Positions 2,215-27,937 of a stretch of 32,015 nucleotides of DNA are shown in pieces. Numbering within the stretch: the stretch's first letter is position 1; every line of letters begins with the position of its first letter. The stretch covers positions 1 to 32,015 of the IMG/VR virus record IMGVR_UViG_3300033405_000056; one strand, written 5' to 3'. A model generated the notes under the pieces. It ran no database searches. It was not told the origin of the DNA and was given only the letters and a program-made list of their open reading frames with translations. A program made the position numbers and the translations under genes. Source of the stretch: a virus. Its lineage: Duplodnaviria; Caudoviricetes.

Positions 2215-3003
2215 TCACGGGTTCACGATTGTGGTTCCGTGGTTCGCAACGTACGGCGAAGCGATAGGCGTGGGCGCGCTCCACGTGGACCAGTTGTTCG
2301 TGCTGACCGAGTAGCTCTGTCCCACGGAGTCGGTGTTGTTGTCGAAGTAAATGATCCAGTTGTCTCCGCCCGTGTTCAGCACACATGGGCCTTCGTAGGT
2401 CGGGGAGTTCCCCCAACCTGCCCAGTTGCCGGTTTCGACAGCCGTGAATATGCCGGTGGGGGAGGACGAGGTGGCGTATTCGACATAGCCCGTGTTGTTG
2501 TTCTTGTACCAGAGATAGTAGGCACCCCCCGCGTAAACGACGTAGGGGTCGATCGAGTAGTTTCCGGAGTAGACCTGGCTGAAGCTGCTCCATGATGTGA
2601 GCGATGTGTTGAGAGCCTGGGCGACGTAAATACTGAAGGGGCTGGTGGTCAATCCGCCGCTCGTCGAAATCGCGACGTAGACATAAACGTTCCCTGAAAC
2701 CGGGTCCTGGAAAAATTCCGGTGCCCATACGCGCACGGTTCCAGAAACCCCAGGGGACACCGCAATTTCGCTTGACCACGTGCCTAGATTGGTTGCCGAT
2801 CTTATCCCAAAATTGGTCTCTACGGATGTTGAGTTTTGGCAATTAGTGTAGGCAATCCAATAGCTGCCGTCGTAGTACATGATGGAGGGGTCGCGGAGAT
2901 AGCCTGAAGATCCGTCTACCATGAACGAATCGAGCAGAGTCCAACTGATGCCGTCCGGAGACGACAGCAATTGAAGGTTTGGTGAGGTCCCGAAAGAGGC
3001 CAT
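2215..3003 (-). CDS. GH43-like five-bladed beta-propeller glycoside hydrolase
   Basis: Motifs LRDPSI, VWAPEF, SIDPYV, YYLWYK, YEGP and NHGT match GH43/clan F propellers. Confidence 0.8.
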   Translation of the reverse strand: MASFGTSPNLQLLSSPDGISWTLLDSFMVDGSSGYLRDPSIMYYDGSYWIAYTNCQNSTSVETNFGIRSATNLGTWSSEIAVSPGVSGTVRVWAPEFFQDPVSGNVYVYVAISTSGGLTTSPFSIYVAQALNTSLTSWSSFSQVYSGNYSIDPYVVYAGGAYYLWYKNNNTGYVEYATSSSPTGIFTAVETGNWAGWGNSPTYEGPCVLNTGGDNWIIYFDNNTDSVGQSYSVSTNNWSTWSAPTPIASPYVANHGTTIVNP

Positions 3004-3033
3004 TAGGTACTGGCCTGCGGCGGGTGTCGTAAG

Positions 3034-4050
3034 TCAGGGACTGGACTGGCTGAAGGAGACGAACCCTTGGCTGTTGACGGTCAGGCCGTTGATCGAGCTG
3101 CTATAGAGATCCATCGCGAACCCTGCCTTCGTCGCTGTCAGGAAAGTAGTATCCGTCTGCGAGTAAAGCGTCGTCCATCCCTGGTTGGTCGGGTCGCAAG
3201 ACACGCTGAAAGTCCGATTGGTGCCGTCGTCTTTTATCCTGAACCAGGTCGCAGGGCAAAAGGAAAACGAATCGTTTTGGTATGGCGTGCTCGAAAAGGT
3301 TGTGGCGTTGGTGAACTCATTGATCTGGATTTGGGGGGTATAGGCGGTTGCCGCCGCGAAAGCGACCGCGAACGTGATGAACTTGGTCCCATCGCTGAGG
3401 GCGATGCCGGTTGAATATCCGCTCACTGAGCCTGCCGAGGAACCAGCGATGCCCGACTGGATGGGGGGCATGAACGCGCCGATCACGCTATATGGAGTCG
3501 AGAGCGTGGCCTTGCCGTAAAAACGGATATTATCGCTTCCCGTGCCGGTGGCCGTCATCGTAAGCAAGCCGCCTGAAACGTCCACGGAGGATGAGCCTTG
3601 GTTGATCCAGGACATTCCCGAAGTCGATGGAGCGGTTAGATTGGCGAATGGGGTGTAGCCGGTGCTGGTGACGATGCAGCCGGTGGTAGTTGTGCCACCG
3701 TTTCCGTCTAGGCACAGGAGATTGCCTGTGCCGCTCACGCTGCCTGCGCTCATCAGGTTAGCGTCTGAGCCCTGCACGCCATACGATGTGCCCCACGCGC
3801 TGCCGGTAGAATTGGGCACCCCTGAGCCGGGATAGGTCGTGCCCGAAGGCATGCAACTTGTCCCGCCGCTCAGGATGCAGGTCAGGACTCCTGTGCTGTT
3901 ATTGACATATAACCGCGCGTTTCCGCTTGCTGGGTTGCCTGGCGCTGCGCGCTCGGCGAAATCCAGGTAACCGTTGACGACTGCCCCGTAGAGCGCCATC
4001 GCGAACATCGTCGTCAAAACTGCCGCTGTCCAAAGTAGTTTCTTTTTCAT
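3034..4050 (-). CDS. Tail-fibre/adhesin-like protein with a lectin-like C-terminal domain and signal-peptide-like N-terminus
   Basis: Start MKKKLLWTAAVLTTMFAMALYGA at 4050; 'APGNPASGNARLY' fibre-type motif; beta-rich C-terminus (WFRIKDDGTNRTFSVS). Confidence 0.6.
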   Translation of the reverse strand: MKKKLLWTAAVLTTMFAMALYGAVVNGYLDFAERAAPGNPASGNARLYVNNSTGVLTCILSGGTSCMPSGTTYPGSGVPNSTGSAWGTSYGVQGSDANLMSAGSVSGTGNLLCLDGNGGTTTTGCIVTSTGYTPFANLTAPSTSGMSWINQGSSSVDVSGGLLTMTATGTGSDNIRFYGKATLSTPYSVIGAFMPPIQSGIAGSSAGSVSGYSTGIALSDGTKFITFAVAFAAATAYTPQIQINEFTNATTFSSTPYQNDSFSFCPATWFRIKDDGTNRTFSVSCDPTNQGWTTLYSQTDTTFLTATKAGFAMDLYSSSINGLTVNSQGFVSFSQSSP

Positions 4051-10810: not shown

Positions 10811-11500
10811 TTATTTCGCCCGCGGTGGAGGCGTGAACTTCGCCGCGCCCACATAGCGCGCTTCCTCGGCCAGGCGCGAATTCGGCTGCCGGTGCATTTC
10901 GACCCGGAGCATGTCGTTGATGCCGGCGGTGAAGAGGTTCTCGAAGGCGGTCATCCCGTCGTAGTCCTTCGCCAGGCTGAGAATGTCCGCGCGCACGCCC
11001 TGGATGATTACTCTGGGGGGTATCCAGGGCAGCGGCGACTCGGTGATCTCGGTCGGATCGAAATTGGGCGCATTGACGATGTAGCGATAGGCCAGCGTCG
11101 ATGCGGCCGCGGTCGAGCTCGGAACCGGGTAAACCTCGACCTGGTGCACTGGCGGGGTGTCGCCCGAATCCTGCGCCAGTGAATAATAGAAAGGCTGCCC
11201 CTGGTCCGCGCGGCCCGGAAACCGCATATTCAGCTCGGCCTGGGTATACGGCCGCATCGGGAAATCGCCCGCGGTGTTGTTCATTTCTAGCAAAATTTTG
11301 AGGTTCGCCGGCAGCTTGTAAATGCTGGGCGTGCCCGGTGTCCCCTCGGTGATCGTGAGGGCCGCGCCTACCTCAAGACTTTTCCAGGGGTACGCGTCAA
11401 GAATCGTCTTATAACGCTCGTAAAGAAAAGAATCCAGCATGTCCAAATCGAGGTTTTCGCCCCATTTGGCGCACATAAGTCTGATAGTTCCCCAGGTCAC
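10811..11500 (-). CDS. Head-tail adaptor/ring protein paralog 2
   Basis: MTWGTIR, YKLPAN, VHQVEVYPVP and ESPLPWI; clearly paralogous to 11610..12557. Confidence 0.7.
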   Translation of the reverse strand: MTWGTIRLMCAKWGENLDLDMLDSFLYERYKTILDAYPWKSLEVGAALTITEGTPGTPSIYKLPANLKILLEMNNTAGDFPMRPYTQAELNMRFPGRADQGQPFYYSLAQDSGDTPPVHQVEVYPVPSSTAAASTLAYRYIVNAPNFDPTEITESPLPWIPPRVIIQGVRADILSLAKDYDGMTAFENLFTAGINDMLRVEMHRQPNSRLAEEARYVGAAKFTPPPRAK

Positions 11501-11515
11501 AATCAGTCATTCGAC
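11498..11515 (-). promoter_or_regulatory. GTCGAA late-promoter motif
   Basis: GTCGAA-TGACTGATT-GTG. Confidence 0.6.
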
Positions 11516-11573
11516 GGTACCAGGAATCGGCATTTTGAACCTAGTAGACACAGGGCTTTCGAGGGACACAGCG

Positions 11574-11610
11574 AAAAAACAACAGGACCCCCGAGGAATG
11601 GGCTGTTGCT
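11574..11610 (-). terminator. Probable intrinsic terminator
   Basis: Minus strand GCAACAGCCC...GGG..CTGTTG followed by TTTTTT, right after the stop of 11610..12557. Confidence 0.5.
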
Positions 11611-12557
11611 CAGTTCGTTCCGTTGTTCCATCCGTAATTGTACCCACGCGCGCTTCTCTCCACGCGATGACGCCAGAAGCGCGGCGCCATCCGCATGGTG
11701 GGCTTCGTCCGTCTCTGCGTAAATTCCACGCGCAGCATGCGCGCCAGCTCGGCGTTGAACTTGGCTTCGAACATCTGCGCCTGGCTGATCTTGCCCGCAT
11801 CGGCAGCGAGGTCCGCTTTCACTCCGTACATGATGCAGGAGTCGCTGATGAAGGGGAGCGGCGATTGCGCCAGGTTCTGGCCGTTGAAGGTGAACGCATT
11901 GCGTAGGTATTCGATGGTCATGCCCCGCGCGAACTTCGGCGGGGGGAACAGCTCGACCTGGTGCACGGTGGGCGTGCCGATGACTTCGGCCGTGTCCTCG
12001 ATCTCGGTCCAGTTCTGCGGGTAGCCGACTTGCGCCCGGCTGCCGGCCGTCTCGTCCAGTTCCGCCGGCGTGAACTTGATCAGCGGGAAGTTGGTCAGCG
12101 AATCGAGTACGCGCTCGAGGGATCGGCAGTCCGCCGGCAGCGTGTACACGTTCTGCATGAACACGTAGCCGCTCGATGCGTATTGGACGCCTGGCGCGTC
12201 CTCGCCGTATCCCTCGTAAGGTCGATCGAGCGTGAGGCTTGTGGCGCTGCCGACTGCGGTCACCGTGTAGACCGGCTCATCGCCCACGCGGTAGAACTTC
12301 ATCCCGACATAGGCGTCCGTCCAGGCGGTCCCGACGCCCGCCACGGTGGCGGATCCCACGGTGAGGGTGCAGGTGTCGGTGTTCGAGAGGTAGGCCGCCG
12401 CGGTTTGCAGTTCAGCCCGGGCGTGGATCCCGGTCCAGTCGGCGGCGCCGAGAATCTGCTCATAGCGCCCGTTCAGGAACCCGTCGAGCACGTCCAGGTT
12501 CGTGCCCGGGACCTGTTGCAGGATGTTGTATCGAAGAGTGCCCCAAGTAGCCATCAC
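11610..12557 (-). CDS. Head-tail adaptor/ring protein paralog 1 with an inserted beta domain
   Basis: MATWGTLR, YTLPADC, VHQVELFPPP and QSPLPFI; insert TVTAVGSATSLTLDRPYEG. Confidence 0.7.
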   Translation of the reverse strand: MMATWGTLRYNILQQVPGTNLDVLDGFLNGRYEQILGAADWTGIHARAELQTAAAYLSNTDTCTLTVGSATVAGVGTAWTDAYVGMKFYRVGDEPVYTVTAVGSATSLTLDRPYEGYGEDAPGVQYASSGYVFMQNVYTLPADCRSLERVLDSLTNFPLIKFTPAELDETAGSRAQVGYPQNWTEIEDTAEVIGTPTVHQVELFPPPKFARGMTIEYLRNAFTFNGQNLAQSPLPFISDSCIMYGVKADLAADAGKISQAQMFEAKFNAELARMLRVEFTQRRTKPTMRMAPRFWRHRVERSARGYNYGWNNGTN

Positions 12558-12570
12558 CAGGCAATTCGAC
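12552..12570 (-). promoter_or_regulatory. GTCGAA late-promoter motif
   Basis: GTCGAA-TTGCCTG-GTG-ATG. Confidence 0.6.
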
Positions 12571-12607
12571 TTCGCGAGGGGTACGATGGTCTGCAGGGAG
12601 AATCACC

Positions 12608-12910
12608 ATGGACAATGGTTTCGTCACAATCGGCAGTCACAACATCCCGCTGACAGGCATCCGGGATGTCGATACGCAGTATGAGCGCAATCAGAGCGAG
12701 GGTGGGGGAACGTGCGTGAGGCTCTGGCTCAATACTCAGCCAGGCAGCCCCGGACCCACCTTCTACGACTTCCGCGGCAACCAGGCCCAGCAGATCCGCA
12801 GAAACCTGCTGGCACTAGGGAACACAGGCTCGTGCATGGTCTTGCTCGAAGCCGGCGAGACAGGCGAAACTGCCGAACCGCCGAAAGGCAAGACTGCCGG
12901 CGCCAAATAG
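12608..12910 (+). CDS. Hypothetical moron-like protein
   Basis: Opposite strand within the structural block; own TACGAT -10 (12582), GGGAG SD and downstream hairpin. Confidence 0.7.
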   Translation: MDNGFVTIGSHNIPLTGIRDVDTQYERNQSEGGGTCVRLWLNTQPGSPGPTFYDFRGNQAQQIRRNLLALGNTGSCMVLLEAGETGETAEPPKGKTAGAK

Positions 12911-12940
12911 CATCGGGCGAGCGGTAACGCTCGCTCGGTG
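12911..12940 (+). terminator. Stem-loop after the plus-strand gene
   Basis: CATCGGGCGAGCG-GTAA-CGCTCGCTCGGTG: 13-bp stem with G-U pairs on the plus strand and a GNRA loop; no U-tract. Confidence 0.55.
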
Positions 12941-12950
12941 ATAATGTTGC

Positions 12951-14564
12951 CTAGTAACCCTCGCACGTCCAAGCGACCACGTCTCCGACTCCAAAGGCAG
13001 ATGTAGCCGTGATCGTCAATTGAGATGTGGTCTCAGCCCATGTCAGCCCGGTATTTAGGCTTGTCGTGGTCCTGTCTCGCACGTAACAGTTCACGTAGCT
13101 TCGCGAGTATGCGCTTGACCAGTAGATGATACCGGTCGTGGCCGTCCCACCGGTGCCTATGACTACTTGGCCAGCACTGTCGAATCCATTGATACTGGGA
13201 TTGGTGCCAAATCCGGAATGCACAGTGGGGGAGCCGCCCTGCCCCGTTACATGCCCAAAATATGCATCTGGAGTCGCAAAGTGATTATAGCCAGGAGCGT
13301 AAATGCCGTACGCTGTACCATAGCCTCCGAGTTGACCTGTCGGATAGGCCAGTGACACATTTTCGGCGTAGCAATTCTGAGTGGTCGCGCTGTTGGGGTT
13401 GTAAACAATAATGGCCGGGCACGATGAGCTAGAGTGGATTGCATATCCATTTGCCCATGAGGCCCCATCTGTCGTGATATTAGAATTGGAGTCGATCACC
13501 GGAGCTAGTACCCCGAACTGTCCAGGGAAACGAATTGCTTGCGCTGTGCCAGACGCACCGGCGGCTATCTGGACTCCGTAAAGCGACACCGTACCATTCT
13601 TGACCCAGATTCCATAATTCTCGAACGCTTCAACATTGGATCCGGAGATTGTCACATATGAGTAAGTATTCGCGGAATCTCCCAGTGATGTGCTCTGCCC
13701 GAGCGCGGCCCAGTTAACATTTGAACCAGAGCCATCTAAGCCGTTGCAGTTGCTTATCGTCGCCGATCCTTGGTAAATTACATAGGCAGACTTGCCGCTG
13801 CCGACTGCATGCACGTAACTGTTTGCAATCGTGCTGGCTGGCCAGCCATTTATCTCGATGCCGTTGTCGGCACTGCTGGTACATCCTACCTCGTCGATCA
13901 ACGTCGAGAACGCATCGGGAAGGTAGACGCATCTACCACCCACCCCCACGACCGTAACGTCATGGATCGTCAAATTATTGGTGAACGTATCGTTGTGAAT
14001 GTATATTCCGTGGTTCGACACGCCTCCGTTTCCATTGATTCCCAGGTCTCGAATGGTGAGTGCAGATATCGAGGCACCGGTCGTCTCGATCACGCCTGTG
14101 CCGGTGCGACTCTTGATCACCGAATTGAGCGGTCCATCGCCATATACCAGCATCCCGGACACATTGATGCAGGTAATTGTGTCCGTCAAGTACGTCCCCG
14201 CGGGAAAATAAAGTGCAGTGGTCGCCGCCTTGGCGGCTGCGCACGCGTTAGCAATGGCCGTCGTATCGTTAGCGGAGCCATTGCCAACAGCGCCGTACGA
14301 CTTGACGTTGATCGGCATCGCTGGAGAATAGAGCACGTTTGCGCCGAGTGTCCCAGTGGGAGCACCGCTAGGTAAAGTAGTCCCTATCGCGACGGTGCCT
14401 GGGATCCTGGTGACCGACGTCGCTCCGCTTCCGGTCACGGTGCTCCCCACTGGCAACGACGGGCCTCCAACGCAAGCCCCGTTGCTGAGCACGTATCCGT
14501 TGGGACAGTTCTGCGCCACAAGCGGAAACACCGCGAAAACCGCGGCGAGTATCCAGAGTTTCAT
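12951..14564 (-). CDS. Pectate-lyase-superfamily beta-helix protein (tailspike/depolymerase-like) with a signal-peptide-like N-terminus
   Basis: INVKSYGAVGNGSANDTTAI...LYFPAGTY motif; real start ATG 14564 (MKLWILAAVFAVFPLVAQ) after an AAGGAAGG SD; visibly lower GC than flanking genes. Confidence 0.8.
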   Translation of the reverse strand: MKLWILAAVFAVFPLVAQNCPNGYVLSNGACVGGPSLPVGSTVTGSGATSVTRIPGTVAIGTTLPSGAPTGTLGANVLYSPAMPINVKSYGAVGNGSANDTTAIANACAAAKAATTALYFPAGTYLTDTITCINVSGMLVYGDGPLNSVIKSRTGTGVIETTGASISALTIRDLGINGNGGVSNHGIYIHNDTFTNNLTIHDVTVVGVGGRCVYLPDAFSTLIDEVGCTSSADNGIEINGWPASTIANSYVHAVGSGKSAYVIYQGSATISNCNGLDGSGSNVNWAALGQSTSLGDSANTYSYVTISGSNVEAFENYGIWVKNGTVSLYGVQIAAGASGTAQAIRFPGQFGVLAPVIDSNSNITTDGASWANGYAIHSSSSCPAIIVYNPNSATTQNCYAENVSLAYPTGQLGGYGTAYGIYAPGYNHFATPDAYFGHVTGQGGSPTVHSGFGTNPSINGFDSAGQVVIGTGGTATTGIIYWSSAYSRSYVNCYVRDRTTTSLNTGLTWAETTSQLTITATSAFGVGDVVAWTCEGY

Positions 14565-14575
14565 AAACCTTCCTT

Positions 14576-14986
14576 TTACGGTAGAATTTCCGCGTCGACC
14601 TGAAGCGTGGCTGCGTTGCCTGTGCCGAGCGTGAGCTGGACGGCCCATTGCAGGGGCAGATGTAGGCCCATCACGCCAAGGGATGCGCCCCCGGACGCGA
14701 CCTGCGATGGCAGCCACGCGCCCGGGTAAAAGTCGAAGACAAACGTGCCCGCCGTCGAGAGAATGCCCGCGGCCGAGAAGCCAGCCAGAGGAATCAGCGT
14801 CCCGGTGCTGGGGACTGCGCCGCACAGAAAAAGGCTGTCGGTTGCGTCTGCGCTGGTGACGGCAGAGACGGTGACGTAGAGCCGGATGCCCCGGCCCCAC
14901 GTGTTGGTTTCGACTTGCGAGGTATACGTGCCCGCCGTGAAGGCCGTGGCCCGCACGACATTTGGCCTGTAGCTCTTGTTCTGCAT
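14576..14986 (-). CDS. Hypothetical virion protein
   Basis: Start MQNKSY directly after the upstream stop; beta-rich (GRGIRLYVTVSAVT). Confidence 0.6.
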   Translation of the reverse strand: MQNKSYRPNVVRATAFTAGTYTSQVETNTWGRGIRLYVTVSAVTSADATDSLFLCGAVPSTGTLIPLAGFSAAGILSTAGTFVFDFYPGAWLPSQVASGGASLGVMGLHLPLQWAVQLTLGTGNAATLQVDAEILP

Positions 14987-14990
14987 GGCG

Positions 14991-15626
14991 TTACGAGTTC
15001 GCCGGAACCACGTAGACCACGAGCACTTCAATGACGCCCTGTGTCAGCGGTCCGGTCTCCACAGTGATGAGGATCTGGCCGGCCGCGCTCATCTTTACAG
15101 GCGATGCAAAGGTGCATGCTCCGTTAATCAGCGCGTCGGCGGTGAGCGAGGCCTTGCCTGTCGATCCGAGGATCGACGTGGCCGAGGATCCTGCCGTGGT
15201 GCCGATTTCGAGCGTTGCCGAACCTGCAGCCGCTACGGCCGTAGTCGGATTGATCGTTGCCCCGATCAGCAGTGCGTTTGCCGGGATGGTGGCGTTGGCC
15301 GCGGGCGTGCAGCTTGCCCCGCCGTCGACGGCAAAGTTGTAGATCGCGTGAGCCACGCCCACCGAGCCGAGCCCGGTTTGGGGGCCAGCCAGGCCGCCGT
15401 TGACGATGGCGCCCGCAGCGTTGATCGCGAAGATCACCGTTCCATCGGGTTGCTCGACGGTGAGGATGTTGGCCGATTGGTTGGTGGGGACCTGCAGGCG
15501 CAGGGCGATGTCGTCGCCTGCGCCTACGGTCAGCGGATCGTGTCCGAGTGAGCCCGCGCCGCGCAGCGTGATGACGGTCGGCCCGCGAAACCGGGTAGCC
15601 CCGGTGGTTTCTTGAGTTTGTCCCAT
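14991..15626 (-). CDS. Putative head decoration/minor capsid protein
   Basis: Immediately after the major capsid gene; TRFRGP and ATIPANA motifs; AAAGGAAA SD. Confidence 0.6.
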   Translation of the reverse strand: MGQTQETTGATRFRGPTVITLRGAGSLGHDPLTVGAGDDIALRLQVPTNQSANILTVEQPDGTVIFAINAAGAIVNGGLAGPQTGLGSVGVAHAIYNFAVDGGASCTPAANATIPANALLIGATINPTTAVAAAGSATLEIGTTAGSSATSILGSTGKASLTADALINGACTFASPVKMSAAGQILITVETGPLTQGVIEVLVVYVVPANS

Positions 15627-15670
15627 CTTAGTAAGTTTCCTTTCGGTGACTTAGTAACTAGGCCGAACGC

Positions 15671-16591
15671 CTAGCTGGAGGGCACTCCCCAGATGCCGTA
15701 GAAGCCGTTGAATCCGACGGCGAATCTCATCCAACCGGCGGTCTTGAGGGACCGCGTATCGAAATCGATGTCGTGGCGAGTGTTGAACGCCTCGCGGTTG
15801 TAGAACCGCAGTTCGGTGTCTTCCTTCTCGCACTCGATGAACCAGGCGTTGGGATCGCTGAGATAATCCCAGACCATCCAGCTATCGAAGCTGGGCATCC
15901 CCGAGCGCCGCTTGAAGGCGTTGATGGTGCGGTTGGCGGTATCCGGTCGGTCGTTGCCGCCGAGCAGTTCCGCCGCGATGAATTCGAGTTGCGAAGGCAC
16001 GATCAATTTCTTGGGCGGAATGCGCAGTTTCTTGCCGCGGTGATCGAGCGTTTGCCGGATCCCGGTCAGCGAGAGCTGAATGCTGGTGATGTCTGGGTCG
16101 CTGGCATAGGCGAGGCGGTTGGTCTGTGTTCCGCCGCCCACCAGGGGGTGAGCCGTGGAGAACAGGGACTGGCCGTCCGGACCGTTCGAGACCGTGAAAC
16201 CGTTGTTGAAGACCGAGGCCGCGGTTACCTCGACGGTTTCCTTGGCCGACTTGCCCAGCTCGCTGGCGAGCTTGCGAACCACCCCGAATTTGTCATCGTC
16301 CTGCGCAATGCGCGAGACGCGGAACCCCAAGCTGTACTGGGCCGGGATGTAGGTCTTGTTGAACCCGGGAAGCGGATCGTCGTAGACGGTCCGATCGTTT
16401 TCGGGCACGACCGCGAACTGTCCGAAGCCCGTTACCTCGGTGGTCTGCTCGATCGACCGAGATGAGGTCTCCATCCGGAAAACCTCGCTGTATTGCTCCG
16501 GAAACCTGTTGTACTTGCTCATGACCACCTCGTCGATGGCCGGGAGCATGGTCGTCAGGTTCAAATCCGGAAAGGATGTGCGTAAATACAT
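15671..16591 (-). CDS. Major capsid protein (Mu gpT-like family)
   Basis: YSLGFRVSR...DDD, GPDGQSLFSTAHPL, PKKLIVPSQLEF, WDYLSDPNAWF and RFAVGF...GIWG motifs. Confidence 0.9.
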   Translation of the reverse strand: MYLRTSFPDLNLTTMLPAIDEVVMSKYNRFPEQYSEVFRMETSSRSIEQTTEVTGFGQFAVVPENDRTVYDDPLPGFNKTYIPAQYSLGFRVSRIAQDDDKFGVVRKLASELGKSAKETVEVTAASVFNNGFTVSNGPDGQSLFSTAHPLVGGGTQTNRLAYASDPDITSIQLSLTGIRQTLDHRGKKLRIPPKKLIVPSQLEFIAAELLGGNDRPDTANRTINAFKRRSGMPSFDSWMVWDYLSDPNAWFIECEKEDTELRFYNREAFNTRHDIDFDTRSLKTAGWMRFAVGFNGFYGIWGVPSS

Positions 16592-16630
16592 TGCTGTGCC
16601 TGTGTCCCCTGTTCCTGTTCCTGTGCCGCG

Positions 16631-17194
16631 CTAGACGCCGGCGGTGTCCTGTCCGAGTTCGGACTTGAGAATGACGACTTCCACAATCGCGTTCGCGCCC
16701 TCCACGTTGGGGCTGATGTTCGACACGCGGATGATGCGGAGATCGAGCCCCGAAGTCGTCGCGATGGATCCGTTCGCCACGGCCATCTTGGATTGCTTGG
16801 TGAGCGCGTTGCCCGCCTGGTTGTTCACGTTGGCGTTCTTGCCGGCGTGGGAGGCGGTAGTCACGGCGAGCGTACCGTCGACCTGCGCGATATAAATGGT
16901 GTCCAGTTCGTCGTAGACGTACTGCGGGGTCGCGGTCGAGGCGGCGCCGTAGTTGACGCTCGCGCCCAGCCACAGAGTCGTACCCGGGGTTGCGTTCTGG
17001 CCGCTGGTGCAGCCGGGCATCGGGTTGCCGAGGCCGGTAGGATCGGGCACGCTGGTTGCGGCCTTCATCACCAAGTCGGCCGCGAAGATGGCAGTTCCGT
17101 CGTTAGACGCCTTGCCGTATTGGCGGGTAGTCAACGGGCCGCCGCTGTCCCGCGAGATGGCTTTGAAGCCGAAAGGGTTGTTGGGGTTCGCCAC
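16631..17194 (-). CDS. Capsid-associated (cement/decoration-like) protein
   Basis: MANPNNPFGF N-terminus, a type often found just before this capsid family; GAGGA SD. Confidence 0.7.
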   Translation of the reverse strand: MANPNNPFGFKAISRDSGGPLTTRQYGKASNDGTAIFAADLVMKAATSVPDPTGLGNPMPGCTSGQNATPGTTLWLGASVNYGAASTATPQYVYDELDTIYIAQVDGTLAVTTASHAGKNANVNNQAGNALTKQSKMAVANGSIATTSGLDLRIIRVSNISPNVEGANAIVEVVILKSELGQDTAGV

Positions 17195-17224
17195 GCGAAA
17201 AATATCCTCGCCCTTTCGTTCGAC
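17192..17224 (-). promoter_or_regulatory. GTCGAA late-promoter motif with a short SD leader (capsid operon)
   Basis: GTCGAA-CGAAAGGGC-GAGGATATTTTTCGC-GTG. Confidence 0.65.
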
Positions 17225-17241
17225 CTGTCACCGACGAATCG

Positions 17242-17409
17242 CTAGACAGAAAGTGAAGTACTGCCGTGGATGCTCCGATACTGTTCGCCGCGGCGGAAGG
17301 TACGCGTCTCGATTGCGGGCTCGACGAAGAGGAGCTTGCAAGCCCACTGTTCGGCATCGCTGCCGCGATCGCGCATGTAGAGCAGCTCCACCGCCGCGGC
17401 CTCGTGCAT
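17242..17409 (-). CDS. Small hypothetical protein (55 aa)
   Basis: ATG 17409 after GGAG; fills the intergenic gap. Confidence 0.4.
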   Translation of the reverse strand: MHEAAAVELLYMRDRGSDAEQWACKLLFVEPAIETRTFRRGEQYRSIHGSTSLSV

Positions 17410-17434
17410 GACCACGGCTCCGGCGTGCAGCCGG

Positions 17435-18334
17435 CTACTCGCCGGCGAAGCGGAGGCCGGTTTCGCGGGATGCCCCGTCATACTCATCGTTGACCGCCAT
17501 CGAGGCCGTAACGCGCTCGCCAGGCCTCAGCAGGCTTGCCCCGCTGCGCATTGCCCCGCCTTCGCCCGCGATCTCGCGTTGTGCCTTGTCGTAATAGGCT
17601 TCTTCCATGTCGCGGACCTGGGCGCGGCCTTCCTCCGCGAAATGCTCCATGCGCCGCTGCGCGATGTATTCCGGGATCATGCCCATGATCAAAGTCCCGA
17701 TCTTTACCGGGTCGCCGCGCTCGTCTTTCACGACTTCGTAGCCGCGGAGTCCCAGTACGTCGTTGCAGCGATCGCTGAGGAACTTGAAGCTCATCCCGGG
17801 ATGCAGCGGCCCATACTTCGCCACTACGTTGCGCATCGGGTTGATGATAAGCGGGTCGATGACATCGTCCAGCTCGATTTCTACGGTGCGTTGCGGGATC
17901 CGGAGGATGCGGTCGCGAAAGGCCTTGGCCGTCGCGTCCACGCCGAACTTCGCGATCGAGGCGCGCAGCCCTTTGCGCATGATGGGATCCGGCGCCGCCA
18001 GTTCCTTTTTCTTCAGGATCAACTCCATGAAGGCATCGGCCACGGCTTCGAGGCCGTACCTTTCGAGGCGCTCGTGGAATTCCGGACAGTTGGTCACGAT
18101 GGGATCCGGACCGTACACGACGCGCGTGGTGGTCTTGGGCGCATCGCCAAAAGACTGCTTGTCGAACTGATCGCGCAGCAGCTCGGCCGCGCTATCGAAT
18201 TTTTTCTCGGGGATTTTGAGGCCGAGGTCGATCGACTCCTCGACTTCCTTCGCGATAATCCGCTGCTGCCGCTGCTTCAACACGCGCTGGTTGAGTGCCT
18301 CGGCGGGGTCTGTCACGGGTAGTTTCTTGGCCAC
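17435..18334 (-). CDS. Head-module hypothetical protein
   Basis: Between scaffold and capsid genes; RGYEVV...GTLIMGMIP motif; AGAGGAAGG SD. Confidence 0.7.
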   Translation of the reverse strand: MAKKLPVTDPAEALNQRVLKQRQQRIIAKEVEESIDLGLKIPEKKFDSAAELLRDQFDKQSFGDAPKTTTRVVYGPDPIVTNCPEFHERLERYGLEAVADAFMELILKKKELAAPDPIMRKGLRASIAKFGVDATAKAFRDRILRIPQRTVEIELDDVIDPLIINPMRNVVAKYGPLHPGMSFKFLSDRCNDVLGLRGYEVVKDERGDPVKIGTLIMGMIPEYIAQRRMEHFAEEGRAQVRDMEEAYYDKAQREIAGEGGAMRSGASLLRPGERVTASMAVNDEYDGASRETGLRFAGE

Positions 18335-19316: not shown

Positions 19317-19693
19317 TAGGCTCGTTTCTCCAATTGGTTTCCGTACTGAGTCCCGCGGTAGAGGTCTTTGCGCTGGTGCGTGTACGGGATCGCGCAGCGC
19401 TCGCAAAGCATCTGCTGGATGCCGTCCTTTGGGACGACGTAAATCTTCACGTCGAGCGCCCGGGGATCCGCGTTGCGCAGCTCATCCCAGCTGCGCCCGC
19501 ATTCCTGGCAGCCGCGCGGTACGGCGCCCCCAAGGAACTGCATGGCGTGGATATGCCACTCCAGGCAGTAATCGCAGATGACCTGGCCCGAGCGGAGGCG
19601 GTGAACCCTCCATTCGGGCAGTTCTTTTGAGCACCAATGACAGCGCACGCCCAACACATTTGGGAGGCGCATGACGCTGCTGGTATCGGGCAC
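19316..19693 (-). CDS. Zinc-finger protein (four CxxC motifs)
   Basis: CHWC, CDYC, CQEC and CERC; start GTG 19693 lies 8 nt after GTCGAA. Confidence 0.65.
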   Translation of the reverse strand: MPDTSSVMRLPNVLGVRCHWCSKELPEWRVHRLRSGQVICDYCLEWHIHAMQFLGGAVPRGCQECGRSWDELRNADPRALDVKIYVVPKDGIQQMLCERCAIPYTHQRKDLYRGTQYGNQLEKRA

Positions 19694-19800: not shown

Positions 19801-19814
19801 GCCCGCTATTCGAC
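19801..19814 (-). promoter_or_regulatory. GTCGAA late-promoter motif with no start codon after it
   Basis: GTCGAA-TAGCGGGC-AGC. Confidence 0.55.
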
Positions 19815-20117
19815 GTGGATGGCTCCGGGGGCTTTTTTGAACGCTTCCGCGGCCTTTTGGGCGGCCTCCAGCTTCGCCCGCATCTCGTCGAGCATACGTT
19901 CCCCGATCGCGGGAATTACTTCGAGCGCTTTGGCGGCGCCCTGCGCCTGCCACATCGTGATCTGGTCGGTAGCCCGGACGCACAGGTCCACGGCACGCCT
20001 GTGCTCCTGCTCGATGCGCGCCATGATTGCCTTGTAGGCGTCGGAATCCAGTAAGGCCCGGAATTCGGTCACATCGAAATGATCGATGTGGTCGGGGGGC
20101 GAGATTTTGGTTGTCAT
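19806..20117 (-). CDS. Small protein following the portal gene
   Basis: Helical protein with a WQAQG motif; ATG lies 9 nt after GTCGAA. Confidence 0.75.
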   Translation of the reverse strand: MTTKISPPDHIDHFDVTEFRALLDSDAYKAIMARIEQEHRRAVDLCVRATDQITMWQAQGAAKALEVIPAIGERMLDEMRAKLEAAQKAAEAFKKAPGAIHVE

Positions 20118-20139
20118 GCCCCGCCATTCGACTTATCAT
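20111..20139 (+). promoter_or_regulatory. Sigma70-type promoter for the mini-CRISPR RNA
   Basis: TTGTCA (20111-20116), 17 nt, TATCAT (20134-20139). Confidence 0.7.
20115..20132 (-). promoter_or_regulatory. GTCGAA late-promoter motif
   Basis: GTCGAA-TGGCGGGGC-ATG. Confidence 0.7.
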
Positions 20140-20140
20140 G

Positions 20141-20231
20141 GGGGGCGAAGGCGAGCGGCCCCATTGAAGCATGTCCTTCACGTGCCGCACCATGTGCAGC
20201 AGATCGAATTTTTCCGCTCGCCTTTGCCCCC
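20141..20231 (+). CRISPR. Cas-less single-spacer mini-CRISPR with split type I-G-like repeat halves
   Basis: 3' repeat half GCGAGCGGCCCCATTGAAGC (20151-20170), a spacer of about 37 nt (20171-20207), then 5' repeat half TTTTTCCGCTCGC (20209-20221). Arms 20141-20158 and 20214-20231 are complementary. The spacer is homologous to portal 20545-20580. Confidence 0.75.
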
Positions 20232-22457
20232 TTACGAATTGCCGTGCAGGCTTTCATCGTGGCCGCTGTAAAGAAACGGCCCCGAAGCAACCGGGTTGCC
20301 CGGTGGCTGCGAAATCGGCCCGCGCCACAATCCGTTGGGCATCTCGACCGGCTGCGCGCCCGCGATGGCTTGCGCCGAGCGCGCGCCGCTCTGCGCGATT
20401 TGCGATGCGGCCTGTATCGCCTGCTCGATCACGGCCTGCTGAATCTTCTTCTGTTGGAGCTGCTGGATGTGTTCCTGGTAGTGCAGGATCAGTTTGGCCA
20501 GCGCTTCCGGGTCCGCATGTTGCATGTCGGCTTCGCACGATTTGATATCGCGCATGTGCCTGATCATATGTAGCAAGTCGTTGTCCATTGGGTTCACGAC
20601 AACGGTCTCGCCGTGCAACAGGTTCACCCATTCGGTCTTCGGATCCACGGACGCATCAGGCTGCGGAGGCCGCGGCACAAGCGCCTCAAATTCCGGATCC
20701 CCCAGCGCATCGTGGGCTTCGCGAGTCACTTCCCAGAGCGCTAACGGGTTATTTACGATCAACGGATTCTGCAAGTCGAGCTGGTAGCGCGCGAGGGTCT
20801 TTTCCTTGTCGGCTTCCCTCGACCAGACGGAATTCGCGAACTGCAGCCGGAAATCGTAGCGGCCGTCGCGGTCTTCGAGGGAGAGGTAGGAGCCACCCTT
20901 GGCCACGGGAAACGCGCCATCCGCGTCTTCCTCGGTCACGCGGAAGAACGTCTCGTCGTTCGAGAAGGCGTACTCGAGCTGCCAGAAATGCTGTAACACA
21001 AGCGCCATATCCTCGCGCAAGACCTTGGTGTCGAGCGAGATCCGCACGTTGCCCTCTTCGAGTAGCGACACGGTCTGTTGGGCCGTCCGCGGCGCGTTCG
21101 GCCGATCGGACTGTCTCCCCATCTGCAGATCACCCATGCCGGTGAGCTTTTCGCCGTAGGCCAGGGTGCACTGCTCTTTCCACTGCGCGATCTGTAGGTC
21201 CGTCGTGATGGTGAGCTGCTTGATGTCCGTCGCCGGATTGTCGAGCGGGATCGCCATGCCCGGCTCCATCTTGAAGGTGTCGGGATTGAAGCCGCTAGCT
21301 GGCCGATAGCCTACCGGCGGATTCATGGCGAGCTGGCCGCCCTCGGTCGCCTGGTTGTGATTGACGCGGAGCTCGTCTTCGAGATTGATGAGCATCTCGG
21401 CCATGCCCATCGACCAATACGAGCCGTCTTTGACCATCGAGGCCTCGACGAAGGGCCGCTTGTTCTTCACGGTCGGGTAGAGCGCATCGAGCGATTGCAC
21501 GCCCACGATGATGTGGAGATCCCAGAGGTACCGGACCACGAAATCCTTTTGCAACATCTCCCGCTTCTTCCAGTCCCACTCGCTGGCATCGGCCTTGCCT
21601 TTCTTCAGCGGGCGCCAGCGGCCATACCATTCCAGAACGAGCAGATTTTCGCCGGCGGAGATAGGCCGCTCGTACATGAGGCCCTCGGCTTCGTCCTGCT
21701 CGCGTTTGATCTCGTCGCCCTCGGATTCGCGCTGGATGCCGTGCTGGGCCATGTTGATGATTTGCTGCCAGTTCTTGCCGATGTTCTGGAAGCGGCCTTC
21801 CTGCTCGCCGCGCAGCAGCGCGTCCGGAGTCATCCGGCATTTGCGGATACAGAAGCTGAACTGGTGCAGTGTCTCGACTTCCTCGCACGGGACCACGAAA
21901 TCGTCCGGATAGAGCGGGAGGAAGTCCGGACCCTCGTAATCGGTGATGGTGACCGGTTCATTGGTTTCGGGCCGCGTCACTTCGAAGGTGTCGCGCAGCC
22001 AGGGCGAGTAGGCCACGCTTCGGCCGAAGAGCAGCTTGCGCAGCACGAAGGTGCAAAACCGCGACGTCAGCTTCATGGAGGTGAACAGGCGCCAGGTCAT
22101 GTACCGCGAGATCTTCTTGTCGCGTTTGAAGTCCGAGGGGCCTACCGGGACCGCCACAATTTCCGCGTCGTCGCCGAACAGCGCGTCCATCTCCTTCGAC
22201 CACTTGGTGAAAATGTTCCACTGGACATAGGGCACCGGGACGTTCGACGCGGTTTCTTCGCCCTGATTCGGCACGTCGACCATCTGGCGCCATCGGCGGT
22301 AATACTCGCGCCACTTCTCCATGCGCCGGTTGTGGTCGGCGAGGGCGTTGCGGTAGTCAGACTGGATCCGGTTCGCGATGCGGGCCAACTCAGCCGCGGG
22401 CCATTTGAGCTGGAATGAGTCGTTGGAGGTAGTGTCTAAGGCGGTTTCGTCGGCCAC
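20232..22457 (-). CDS. Portal protein
   Basis: About 740 aa after the terminase region; DFVVP, YWSMGMAE, TGMGDLQMG and PRTAQ motifs of P22/T7-type portals. Start is GTG 22457 or in-frame GTG 22508, each behind a GTCGAA motif. Confidence 0.88.
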   Translation of the reverse strand: MADETALDTTSNDSFQLKWPAAELARIANRIQSDYRNALADHNRRMEKWREYYRRWRQMVDVPNQGEETASNVPVPYVQWNIFTKWSKEMDALFGDDAEIVAVPVGPSDFKRDKKISRYMTWRLFTSMKLTSRFCTFVLRKLLFGRSVAYSPWLRDTFEVTRPETNEPVTITDYEGPDFLPLYPDDFVVPCEEVETLHQFSFCIRKCRMTPDALLRGEQEGRFQNIGKNWQQIINMAQHGIQRESEGDEIKREQDEAEGLMYERPISAGENLLVLEWYGRWRPLKKGKADASEWDWKKREMLQKDFVVRYLWDLHIIVGVQSLDALYPTVKNKRPFVEASMVKDGSYWSMGMAEMLINLEDELRVNHNQATEGGQLAMNPPVGYRPASGFNPDTFKMEPGMAIPLDNPATDIKQLTITTDLQIAQWKEQCTLAYGEKLTGMGDLQMGRQSDRPNAPRTAQQTVSLLEEGNVRISLDTKVLREDMALVLQHFWQLEYAFSNDETFFRVTEEDADGAFPVAKGGSYLSLEDRDGRYDFRLQFANSVWSREADKEKTLARYQLDLQNPLIVNNPLALWEVTREAHDALGDPEFEALVPRPPQPDASVDPKTEWVNLLHGETVVVNPMDNDLLHMIRHMRDIKSCEADMQHADPEALAKLILHYQEHIQQLQQKKIQQAVIEQAIQAASQIAQSGARSAQAIAGAQPVEMPNGLWRGPISQPPGNPVASGPFLYSGHDESLHGNS

Positions 22458-22523
22458 GCCCGCTATTCGACTGACAAGCCCCGGTCCCGCTTGCTTGTAT
22501 GTCCACACAAGCCCGTATTCGAC
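22455..22523 (-). promoter_or_regulatory. Two tandem GTCGAA motifs before the portal gene
   Basis: GTCGAA-TACGGGCTT-GTG(22508) and GTCGAA-TAGCGGGC-GTG(22457). Confidence 0.65.
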
Positions 22524-26564: not shown

Positions 26565-27218
26565 CTACGCGGCCTTGTCGAGTCCCATGCCCCACATGAG
26601 CACCTTGGCTCCCAGCGTAGCCCGCGCACTCGCTAGCTTCGCCCGTGCCCACGCCACGCTGCGGCGCCGCTTCTCCGCGATCGCGATCAATGAGGCGCCC
26701 CCCACCGACATGGTGAATACCTCGCGTTCGTCTGCCGGCAAATCCTGGACCGCCTGCGAGAGCAAGTAAGCCTGCTCGCGCTTCTGCGCGGTCTCTTCGG
26801 GCATGGGGGCATTGTCGCGCACAATCCGAATGGCGGCCATCTTGCGCGGATCGGGCCTTTCGATGTACCCTTCGCCCACCCCGCTCTCGTCGATCGTCAC
26901 CAGGCTGAGGGTGTCATCCTTGTACGCTCGCCGCTTGTGCGCGTCGATCATGGCGCCGCGGATTCTGAAGTAAGAGAAGGCCTGGAACGTCTTGCCCTTC
27001 GCAGGATCGAACAGCCGATCGGCTTCGAGCAGCCCCACGTATCCCGACTGGATGAGATCCTCGATCGAGACGTGGGTCATGTGCCGGTGCACCTGGCGGG
27101 CAATACGCTCGACGATCGGGACGCATTCGAGCAAGATGGCCTCGCGGTTCTTTTTCCAGCGCACGCGGGCCGCATAGCGCGCCCACTGGGTCCGGGTCAG
27201 CTCAATCTTTTTGGGCAA
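26565..27218 (-). CDS. Phage-encoded sigma-70-family sigma factor, FliA/WhiG-like
   Basis: Region 2: EDLIQSGYVGLLEADRLFDPAKGKTFQAFSYFRIRGAMID; region 4: LSQAVQDLPADEREVF...SLIAIAE. Confidence 0.9.
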   Translation of the reverse strand: MPKKIELTRTQWARYAARVRWKKNREAILLECVPIVERIARQVHRHMTHVSIEDLIQSGYVGLLEADRLFDPAKGKTFQAFSYFRIRGAMIDAHKRRAYKDDTLSLVTIDESGVGEGYIERPDPRKMAAIRIVRDNAPMPEETAQKREQAYLLSQAVQDLPADEREVFTMSVGGASLIAIAEKRRRSVAWARAKLASARATLGAKVLMWGMGLDKAA

Positions 27219-27672: not shown

Positions 27673-27937
27673 GGGGCCTCGCGTAGAAACGCTCCCTGAG
27701 TTGGTCCCAGCCGCAGTTGATGGCCGCAGCCTGGGCGCGCTCTATCATGGCCGCAGCCTGGGCGCGCTCTATCGGGGACTCGACCCACGCGAGCCCGTTG
27801 GGCGACTCGATCCACCCGAGACCGTTGCCAGGCCCCGGCAGAAACTGTAATTGCCTTGCGCCGTGGATATCGCAATCCGCGCGCGGTTCGTTCTTCCGGA
27901 CCACGTCGGTGCAGCCGCAGGCGTATTCCACGATCAT
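27662..27937 (-). CDS. Hypothetical protein with internal 9-aa duplications
   Basis: ATGA overlap start; NGLGWIESP/NGLAWVESP and IERAQAAA twice. Confidence 0.55.
   Translation of the reverse strand: MIVEYACGCTDVVRKNEPRADCDIHGARQLQFLPGPGNGLGWIESPNGLAWVESPIERAQAAAMIERAQAAAINCGWDQLRERFYARPRAA
27720..27773. repeat. Perfect 27-bp tandem duplication
   Basis: ATGGCCGCAGCCTGGGCGCGCTCTATC at 27720-27746 and 27747-27773. Confidence 0.9.

Follow-up and report, generated by a model that had tools for sequence, protein, structure and literature searches.

Viral mini-CRISPR arrays have been interpreted as a means of superinfection exclusion, and the accessible portions of the papers describing them propose neither homing nor a rule on the PAM side (PMC6858448; PMC11656645). 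Some of the published mini-array spacers target adjacent genes, a point for which Medvedeva et al. (2019; PMC6858448) cite Faure et al. The free-standing homing nucleases of T4 attack a conserved gene that lies at a distance of hundreds to thousands of bases from their own gene, and the latter is inserted in the course of repair (PMC2988022). As for the processing of type I-G CRISPR RNA, the Csb2 of Thioalkalivibrio was reported to cut 4 nt 3' of the hairpin base, to leave an 8-nt handle and to stay bound to the hairpin, and the PAM of this type I-G system is TTN (PMC9638904). For another I-G Csb2 the cut was placed differently, at a distance of 5 nt to the repeat's 5' end (10.1101/2022.08.19.504415), so that the cut geometry given below for a phage element rests on one system. 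Neither a split or permuted I-G repeat nor homing by cas-less mini-arrays was found in the open-access texts (supplements apart).

The DNA examined here (hereafter the window) comprises 32,015 nucleotides of the IMG/VR record IMGVR_UViG_3300033405_000056 and represents a 32-kb portion of a tailed phage, the late genes of which lie on the minus strand. The same portal occurs, together with the same element, in a complete 47-kb record with terminal repeats (L003/G002). The portal stop codon (20232-20234) and the start of the next gene (20117) are separated by 114 nt, and this intergenic gap holds an element of approximately 90 nt, in which two halves of a type I-G CRISPR repeat enclose a single spacer. 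On the plus strand the gap contains, in this order, a promoter, a GC-rich arm, CCCC, ATTGAAGC, the spacer, TTTT, CC and a complementary second arm. We lean slightly towards the interpretation that this is a free-standing homing element made of RNA only, which would borrow the Cascade-Cas3 of its host. The features of the window are as follows:

19806-20117, minus strand: conserved small gene after the portal, located directly after the portal stop in L155, L188 and L176.
20111-20139, plus strand: putative sigma70-type promoter (-35 TTGTCA at 20111-20116, 17 nt, -10 TATCAT at 20134-20139).
20118-20132, minus strand: family-wide motif, reading ...ATTCGAC on the plus strand, with copies ahead of several late genes.
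20140-20158, plus strand: 5' arm, in the predicted fold the 3' strand of the repeat stem, with GG at its end.
20159-20170, plus strand: CCCC followed by the 8-nt handle ATTGAAGC (20163-20170), with the geometry given in the accessible part of PMC9638904 and ends as in host arrays.
20171-20209, plus strand: spacer, of which 36 nt match the antisense strand of portal genes; 39 nt if counted up to the 4-nt lead of the repeat.
20210-20232, plus strand: the repeat's 5' half, made up of TTTT, CC and a 3' arm pairing with the 5' arm; adjoins the portal stop codon.
20232-22508, minus strand: portal gene (PHROG head-tail adaptor, E 3.5e-7; solved portal, E 2.3e-4).
20542-20580, plus strand: own copy of the target, with the TTG PAM kept and 24/36 matches at 20545-20580.

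An initial annotation of this stretch had described a single-spacer mini-CRISPR lacking any complete repeat. All of its features were found where it had placed them, and indeed only halves of a repeat occur, with no second handle and no self-contained hairpin. The stem that it described as closing the spacer in a loop does pair, with a computed length of 19 bp, including two G-U pairs, instead of 18 bp (20140-20158 with 20214-20232; z -6.6, equalled by 0/200 shuffles). The order of stem, 4 nt and 8-nt handle in the predicted fold agrees with the accessible description of the Thioalkalivibrio repeat (PMC9638904), which would place the Csb2 cut between 20162 and 20163, 4 nt off the stem base. 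The two distant arms would in this way rebuild the stem that is reported to be bound by Csb2. An RNA starting at about 20146 keeps 13 of the 19 stem pairs (z -4.4), and this shortened 13-bp duplex has a predicted energy of -25 kcal/mol. The 114-nt slot encodes no gene and hence no nuclease protein, and the element is without a match in Rfam. A T-rich tail after the stem is absent in the window and present in 11/57 of the split units described below, so that no such tail accounts for the 3' end of the RNA. The letters of the element are unchanged in two other sequencing runs (X3 spans 20032-20244 and X2 extends to 20216), so it is no assembly artefact; a further run, X4, covers 20191-20341, and X1 may itself be the run from which this DNA came.

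The putative promoter, whose activity would have to follow from its sequence, scores 10/12 and is the sole match within 1.5 kb, but shuffled sequences already give 0.4 +/- 0.8 matches, so that it is weak evidence taken alone. Its -35 box shares bases with the start codon of the minus-strand gene that comes next. A related phage, L001, has another -35/17/-10 pair that is equally placed. The ATTCGAC motif nested inside this promoter likely serves as a promoter read with the sigma factor that the phage itself encodes. Copies occur in the window at 19693, 19800, 20118, 22457, 22509, 22780, 24176, 25977 and 26333, the motif recurs in relatives, and a Sigma70_r2 gene is located at 26565-27218. The window also contains a perfect 27-nt tandem duplication within a coding region (27720-27773).

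The portal gene adjoins the gene for the terminase large subunit. Portal relatives were encountered in two MAGs labelled Bryobacteraceae and Streptosporangiaceae, and the portal was not found in the 401 genomes of the phylum of G005. No cas genes were seen in the subset of ORFs of the window phage that was scanned, and a csb2 search of the complete 47-kb genome gave 0 matches, as did its control. Among the ORFs of G002 scanned no integrase was seen; outside the window this genome carries an IS1595-family transposase (L193, 209-1165) and a small serine resolvase (2978-3628). L192 encodes, at 11310-17729, a protein of 2,139 amino acids in which an FtsK gamma domain is located around residue 510.

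At the own portal site (20545-20580) the 24 matches and the TTG ahead of them, both noted initially, were confirmed. At the nucleotide level alone this site stands out little, since the next best places in the window have 22 matches. Of the 11 codons, 8 specify the same residue as the spacer and 6/9 differing codons are silent, and against shuffled spacers the match has a z of 7.3. The own target shows 4 seed mismatches outside position 6, lies 374 nt from the handle with its PAM facing the element, and is predicted to be immune to the guide.

The initial suggestion that the spacer was taken from a relative's portal was borne out to the extent that relatives match it at up to 29/37 positions versus 24/37 for the own gene. 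The near-perfect target that had been expected did not turn up, 29/37 (reached by five portal loci) being the best value among 40 portal loci. In approximately 29 of the 39 other portal loci, judged by eye, the best spacer match is at the same portal site. A 10-nt seed free of mismatches and preceded by TTG is present in L187, L177 and L176, and TTN occurs at the site of the spacer in 10/31 family portals. The best match at the protein level is 9/11 residues among the 120 of 212 portal proteins listed. Comparison with cultured phages yielded short chance matches only, and a degenerate scan of viral contigs with the spacer retrieved this phage only. On these sequence comparisons, the spacer stems from the portal gene of a relative. 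In L001 the corresponding slot holds the same arms around a different portal spacer, whose 14 top matches are all preceded by TTN. The spacer of L181 matches the small gene, its own copy lying 70 nt away. In L163-L165 the slot after the portal is occupied by a fourth unit; for the L163 spacer no match was found.

These data bear on another explanation for the locus, i.e., that it is a decayed duplication of the portal end within a terminator-like hairpin. In its favour, the hairpin comes immediately after a stop codon, and RNA of the minus strand would fold too (z -7.0). However, the spacer is nearer to relatives than to the own gene with mostly silent differences, the repeat ends match those of I-G arrays, and 56 other units share the same plan. 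Contradicted by the better match of the relatives, by the class of split units and by the adjacency data discussed below, a decayed duplication is extremely improbable.

The attribution of the two halves to the I-G repeat family was substantiated by full arrays with the same repeat ends beside csb1, csb2 and cas3g in L022 and beside cas4g-cas1g in L011, the repeats of which share the 3' 20 nt, exactly or nearly. An array with the exact left arm of the window element was not found. In host repeats the TTCC...GGCCYCATTGAAGC parts, i.e., stem base and handle, are constant and the stems vary, and the same holds for split units. The pattern is present in 43/401 genomes of one phylum (42/400 without the unpublished G055). 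A repeat scan of genome contigs yielded 7 loci, one of which (L011) is an array. Of the 10 loci yielded by the metagenome repeat scan, three are arrays that share one repeat, one is this phage and the other six are single matches. Comparison of 20 kb of the window with the 42 repeat-bearing genomes gave only weak short matches (best E 1e-4), counted irrespective of whether they fall in arrays. The I-G locus with the closest repeat (L022, 132-16717) is located among the conjugation genes trbF, trbG, trbI and traA, so that the nuclease could derive from a plasmid or island.

Two complete IMG/VR scans (65 and 57 stretches) provided 158 distinct spacers, which, with class and score thresholds that were self-chosen and fixed after inspection of the data, comprise 57 split units (including the window and L001), 73 spacers in arrays, 20 half-and-whole and 8 unstructured cases. 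The 57 split units carry 54 distinct arms, which covary: the duplex of the own arms has a median of -30.7 versus -14.1 with the arms swapped. Their arms have a median length of 14 bp versus 6-8 bp for host stems, the spacer measures 36-39 nt in 52/57, and a -10-like hexamer lies at most 20 nt from the arm in 25/56 versus 8% of random windows. For none of the split spacers was a match of more than 29/34 found in 2.4 Mb of loci. The spacers of L304, L294, L296 and L226 match other contigs that bear elements (L282/L263, L304, L281 and L284, respectively) at 27-29 of 34 positions; three of these four cross-matches have TTN and represent candidate rivals. Two or three split units per phage occur in L297, L299, L276, L243 and L221, the last with a tandem pair 100 nt apart. 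L238, L209, L208, L216 and L264 have a half repeat before the spacer and a degenerate whole repeat after it and may be intermediates; L264 has a PAM-side neighbour 517 nt away. An array-class spacer near 7921 of L267 matches its own contig at 34/34 behind TTG. In a control scan with a motif that we take to represent the type I-C pattern, 80 of 102 loci were examined. No long-stem split unit was found among them, and 1/25 of the short-array spacers had a neighbouring match, a spacer duplication. This is a negative control for the method, and other subtypes may still have the class.

The position of the split units relative to the genes that they match was assessed in two ways. Spacers were scored against their own flanks by nucleotide and protein likeness, with the PAM left out of the score. 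With flanks to 10 kb, 21/57 split spacers have a homologue in their own genome versus 6/684 cross-comparisons, in every one of the 21 cases at a distance of no more than 800 nt (2.4 expected). Counted over the three codon positions, mismatches at these homologues number 43/23/129, and TTN precedes 14/21 of them versus a background of 4.4%, even though the PAM was unscored. With 1-kb flanks, a tighter mask and the 99th percentile of 2,786 cross-comparisons as threshold, 28/57 split spacers pass (0.6 expected); they are diverged, mostly synonymous copies of a nearby gene. For array spacers of type I-G an own-flank match was found in 4/73. The element lies on the PAM side of the own homologue in 24/28 cases (p 1.8e-4), of which 17 are direct and downstream and 7 inverted and upstream. 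Four of the 28 point away from it, as do the borderline cases L271, L212 and L231. By lineage group there are 17 on the PAM side, 3 away and 1 mixed (17/20 unmixed groups; p 0.003). The remaining 29/57 split units have no own homologue within 1 kb. Adjacency within 1 kb on the PAM side of the target gene points to homing; that half of the units are without such a neighbour and four point away argues against it.

The PAM side is also what would be expected if each element were a scar of its origin, i.e., a fragment of a host array patched in once on the side chewed by Cas3, and spacer gain by recombination with host arrays has been proposed in the literature. Arms that covary and are longer than host stems do not fit such a fragment, however, nor do the enrichment of promoters and the codon phase reported below, which implies selection among spacers. 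The window and L001, moreover, keep arms and slot and swap portal spacers. We therefore regard a scar of origin as improbable.

The own homologues keep TTN in 18/28 cases. Compared with sites from which TTN has disappeared, those that keep it show more seed mismatches (p 0.025) and a reduced identity (p 0.013), with 1-6 seed mismatches where the PAM is kept. Own sites would, as read from the sequences, escape either through the loss of TTN or through mismatches in the seed. In 25/29 cases the wobble bases coincide with spacer positions 3, 6, 9 and so on, whereas TT placement alone predicts 44-48%; this codon phase also sets the TT of the PAM on codon positions 1-2. In Cascade every sixth guide position is unpaired. 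Such a codon phase would let guides tolerate silent drift in rivals. With respect to the matched gene, 17 spacers are sense and 11 antisense (n = 28), a mix that would suit DNA targeting.

The frequent retention of TTN at own sites, the predicted promoter ahead of the element and the fact that the RNA of the window would be antisense to the portal mRNA could also indicate an anti-CRISPR or regulatory RNA, either a Racr-like decoy that titrates Cas proteins or a non-cutting guide on the own gene or mRNA, as in Cracr and CreA. Against this, the spacers are 36-39 nt versus a median of 19 nt for viral I-F Cracr, they match coding regions and not promoters, both orientations occur, and the own sites that keep the PAM carry seed mismatches. 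We consider this explanation very improbable.

In the homing mechanism that we favour, host RNA polymerase would transcribe a short plus-strand RNA, the two arms of which would pair, and the stem base, flanked by TTTT and CCCC-ATTGAAGC, would mimic the host repeat. A single Csb2 cut would yield a complete crRNA with a two-strand duplex as its 3' 'hairpin', the released 5' piece staying paired to the 3' arm. Upon co-infection Cascade would recognise the portal of the rival through a TTN PAM but leave the own allele untouched, and Cas3 would nick and degrade PAM-wards toward the empty slot of the rival, 0.1-0.8 kb away. With the genome that carries the guide as template for repair, the immune allele and the guide would be copied in together, the 3' end of the portal being the predicted co-conversion tract, and unrepaired rival genomes would be lost. 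Spacers would be renewed via recombination with host arrays, and only guides to neighbouring genes would spread. In vitro, I-G Cas3 nicks the non-target strand and degrades it 5'-wards to the PAM according to the accessible part of PMC9638904, and because of this direction a guide on the PAM side would be uncovered and copied in. In Escherichia coli, I-G cutting promotes repair from a donor (PMC10482374). Cas3 there also produces deletions of tens of kb in both directions (PMC10482374), and such long two-sided deletions could destroy a 47-kb rival, which weakens the argument from the PAM side.

These long, bidirectional deletions in vivo fit the main rival to homing, i.e., a guide for the exclusion of kin that does not home, which we consider possible, though on balance unlikely. 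It would share the evidence on processing and targeting. Any recombinant in which the guide ended up with a sensitive allele would kill itself, so that tight linkage to the immune allele would be selected, and this would be the sole reason for the position beside the target gene. The accessible text of PMC6858448 has published mini-arrays acting in conflict between viruses, some against adjacent genes. The split units without a neighbouring homologue, half of the total, also speak for this view, as does the L304 spacer, which matches another phage at 29/34 with TTG. Linkage does explain closeness, but not the placement on the PAM side in two geometries, nor the sharing of a slot with homing-type nucleases. 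Exclusion of relatives was also the purpose given in the initial annotation; the spacer from a related phage supports it, but the position within 1 kb on the PAM side is left unexplained. The adjacency to the own portal had been noted correctly, and no conclusion was drawn from it.

The slot after the portal provides a further comparison. Where it is empty the next gene starts at offsets of +2, -4 and -14 nt (L155, L188 and L176, respectively), versus 114 nt here. Among the slot ORFs scanned (23 of 58 listed, from 16 loci) three encode HNH nucleases (L167, L171 and L175) and one a GIY-YIG nuclease (L160). Phages frequently carry HNH and GIY-YIG genes, and the count made here concerns this slot only, which counts against its use as an argument for homing. 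Directly after the portal stop of L187 a 35-codon ORF (2745-2852, minus strand) presumably resembles the start of a LAGLIDADG nuclease and might be a decayed homing nuclease in the slot. In a portal tree of 31 rows (L178 and L187 dropped) the four guide-bearing portals are scattered; they form no single group, and the starred branches force 4 changes. The portal of L001 is closest to that of the window over the last 58 codons only, by a few points, and ranks 10-13 among the relatives of the window around the targets; with closeness confined to the tail, the signal of co-conversion is weak.

For the broader proposition we see even chances: that these elements form a widespread class in phages of approximately 90 nt, in which a circularly permuted one-cut I-G crRNA makes a homing endonuclease of the host nuclease, placement on the PAM side exposes the insertion site, and the elements compete with HNH and GIY-YIG genes for slots. 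New here are the counts of closeness, side, codon phase and slot; homing, if demonstrated, would be categorically new. Gene conversion among phages would then be driven by CRISPR immunity itself, with one of the smallest selfish elements described as its vehicle. This would answer why spacers of phage mini-arrays often match the adjoining gene, a pattern which the accessible texts mention without accounting for it. The permuted repeat is invisible to array finders, has no direct repeats between which recombination could remove the spacer, and points to guides needing one cut as a design for type I-G editing.

Compared with known systems, the element resembles virus-borne mini-CRISPR arrays, as far as the accessible literature describes them, in that no cas genes were found, it has one spacer, it is directed against related viruses and its own orthologous site is altered. 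The published arrays consist of whole repeats with the same sequence as the host's, however, whereas here halves with private pairing arms occur. The 8-nt handle, the cut 4 nt off the stem base, the TTN PAM and the spacer length are those of the Thioalkalivibrio I-G repeat in the accessible part of PMC9638904; the phage stem differs in being built from two distant arms, so that a single cut would be enough and the 3' handle would consist of a two-strand duplex. Racr single-repeat units, Cracr and CreA are likewise compact viral mimics of crRNA that use host Cas proteins (10.1101/2024.10.29.618823; 10.1101/2023.03.03.530964), but in the accessible accounts Racr and Cracr have no real spacer or a short one, directed against cas promoters, whereas the spacer here is a full-length one from phage coding sequence. 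RNA-guided cutting that favours the element through repair is shared, if homing occurs, with the guide RNAs of TnpB and IscB, which bias transposon inheritance (10.1101/2023.03.14.532601). TnpB and IscB elements come with a nuclease of their own and are directed at the junction left by their excision, whereas the phage element encodes no nuclease and its target is a foreign allele of a neighbouring gene. With the seg and mob homing endonucleases of T4 it shares an intergenic position beside a conserved essential gene, as portrayed in the accessible parts of PMC2988022 and PMC10448857; there, too, the cut, predicted in our case, falls in the relative's allele hundreds of bases away and the own allele is immune. 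An intergenic position near the target gene, empty alleles in relatives and a patchy distribution, all traits of homing endonucleases, were found here. It differs from these in having no protein: the specificity would reside in an RNA and the nuclease would be the Cascade-Cas3 of the host. Without a whole repeat the element is no mini-array and without a protein it is no homing endonuclease, and it likely works as a cross of both.
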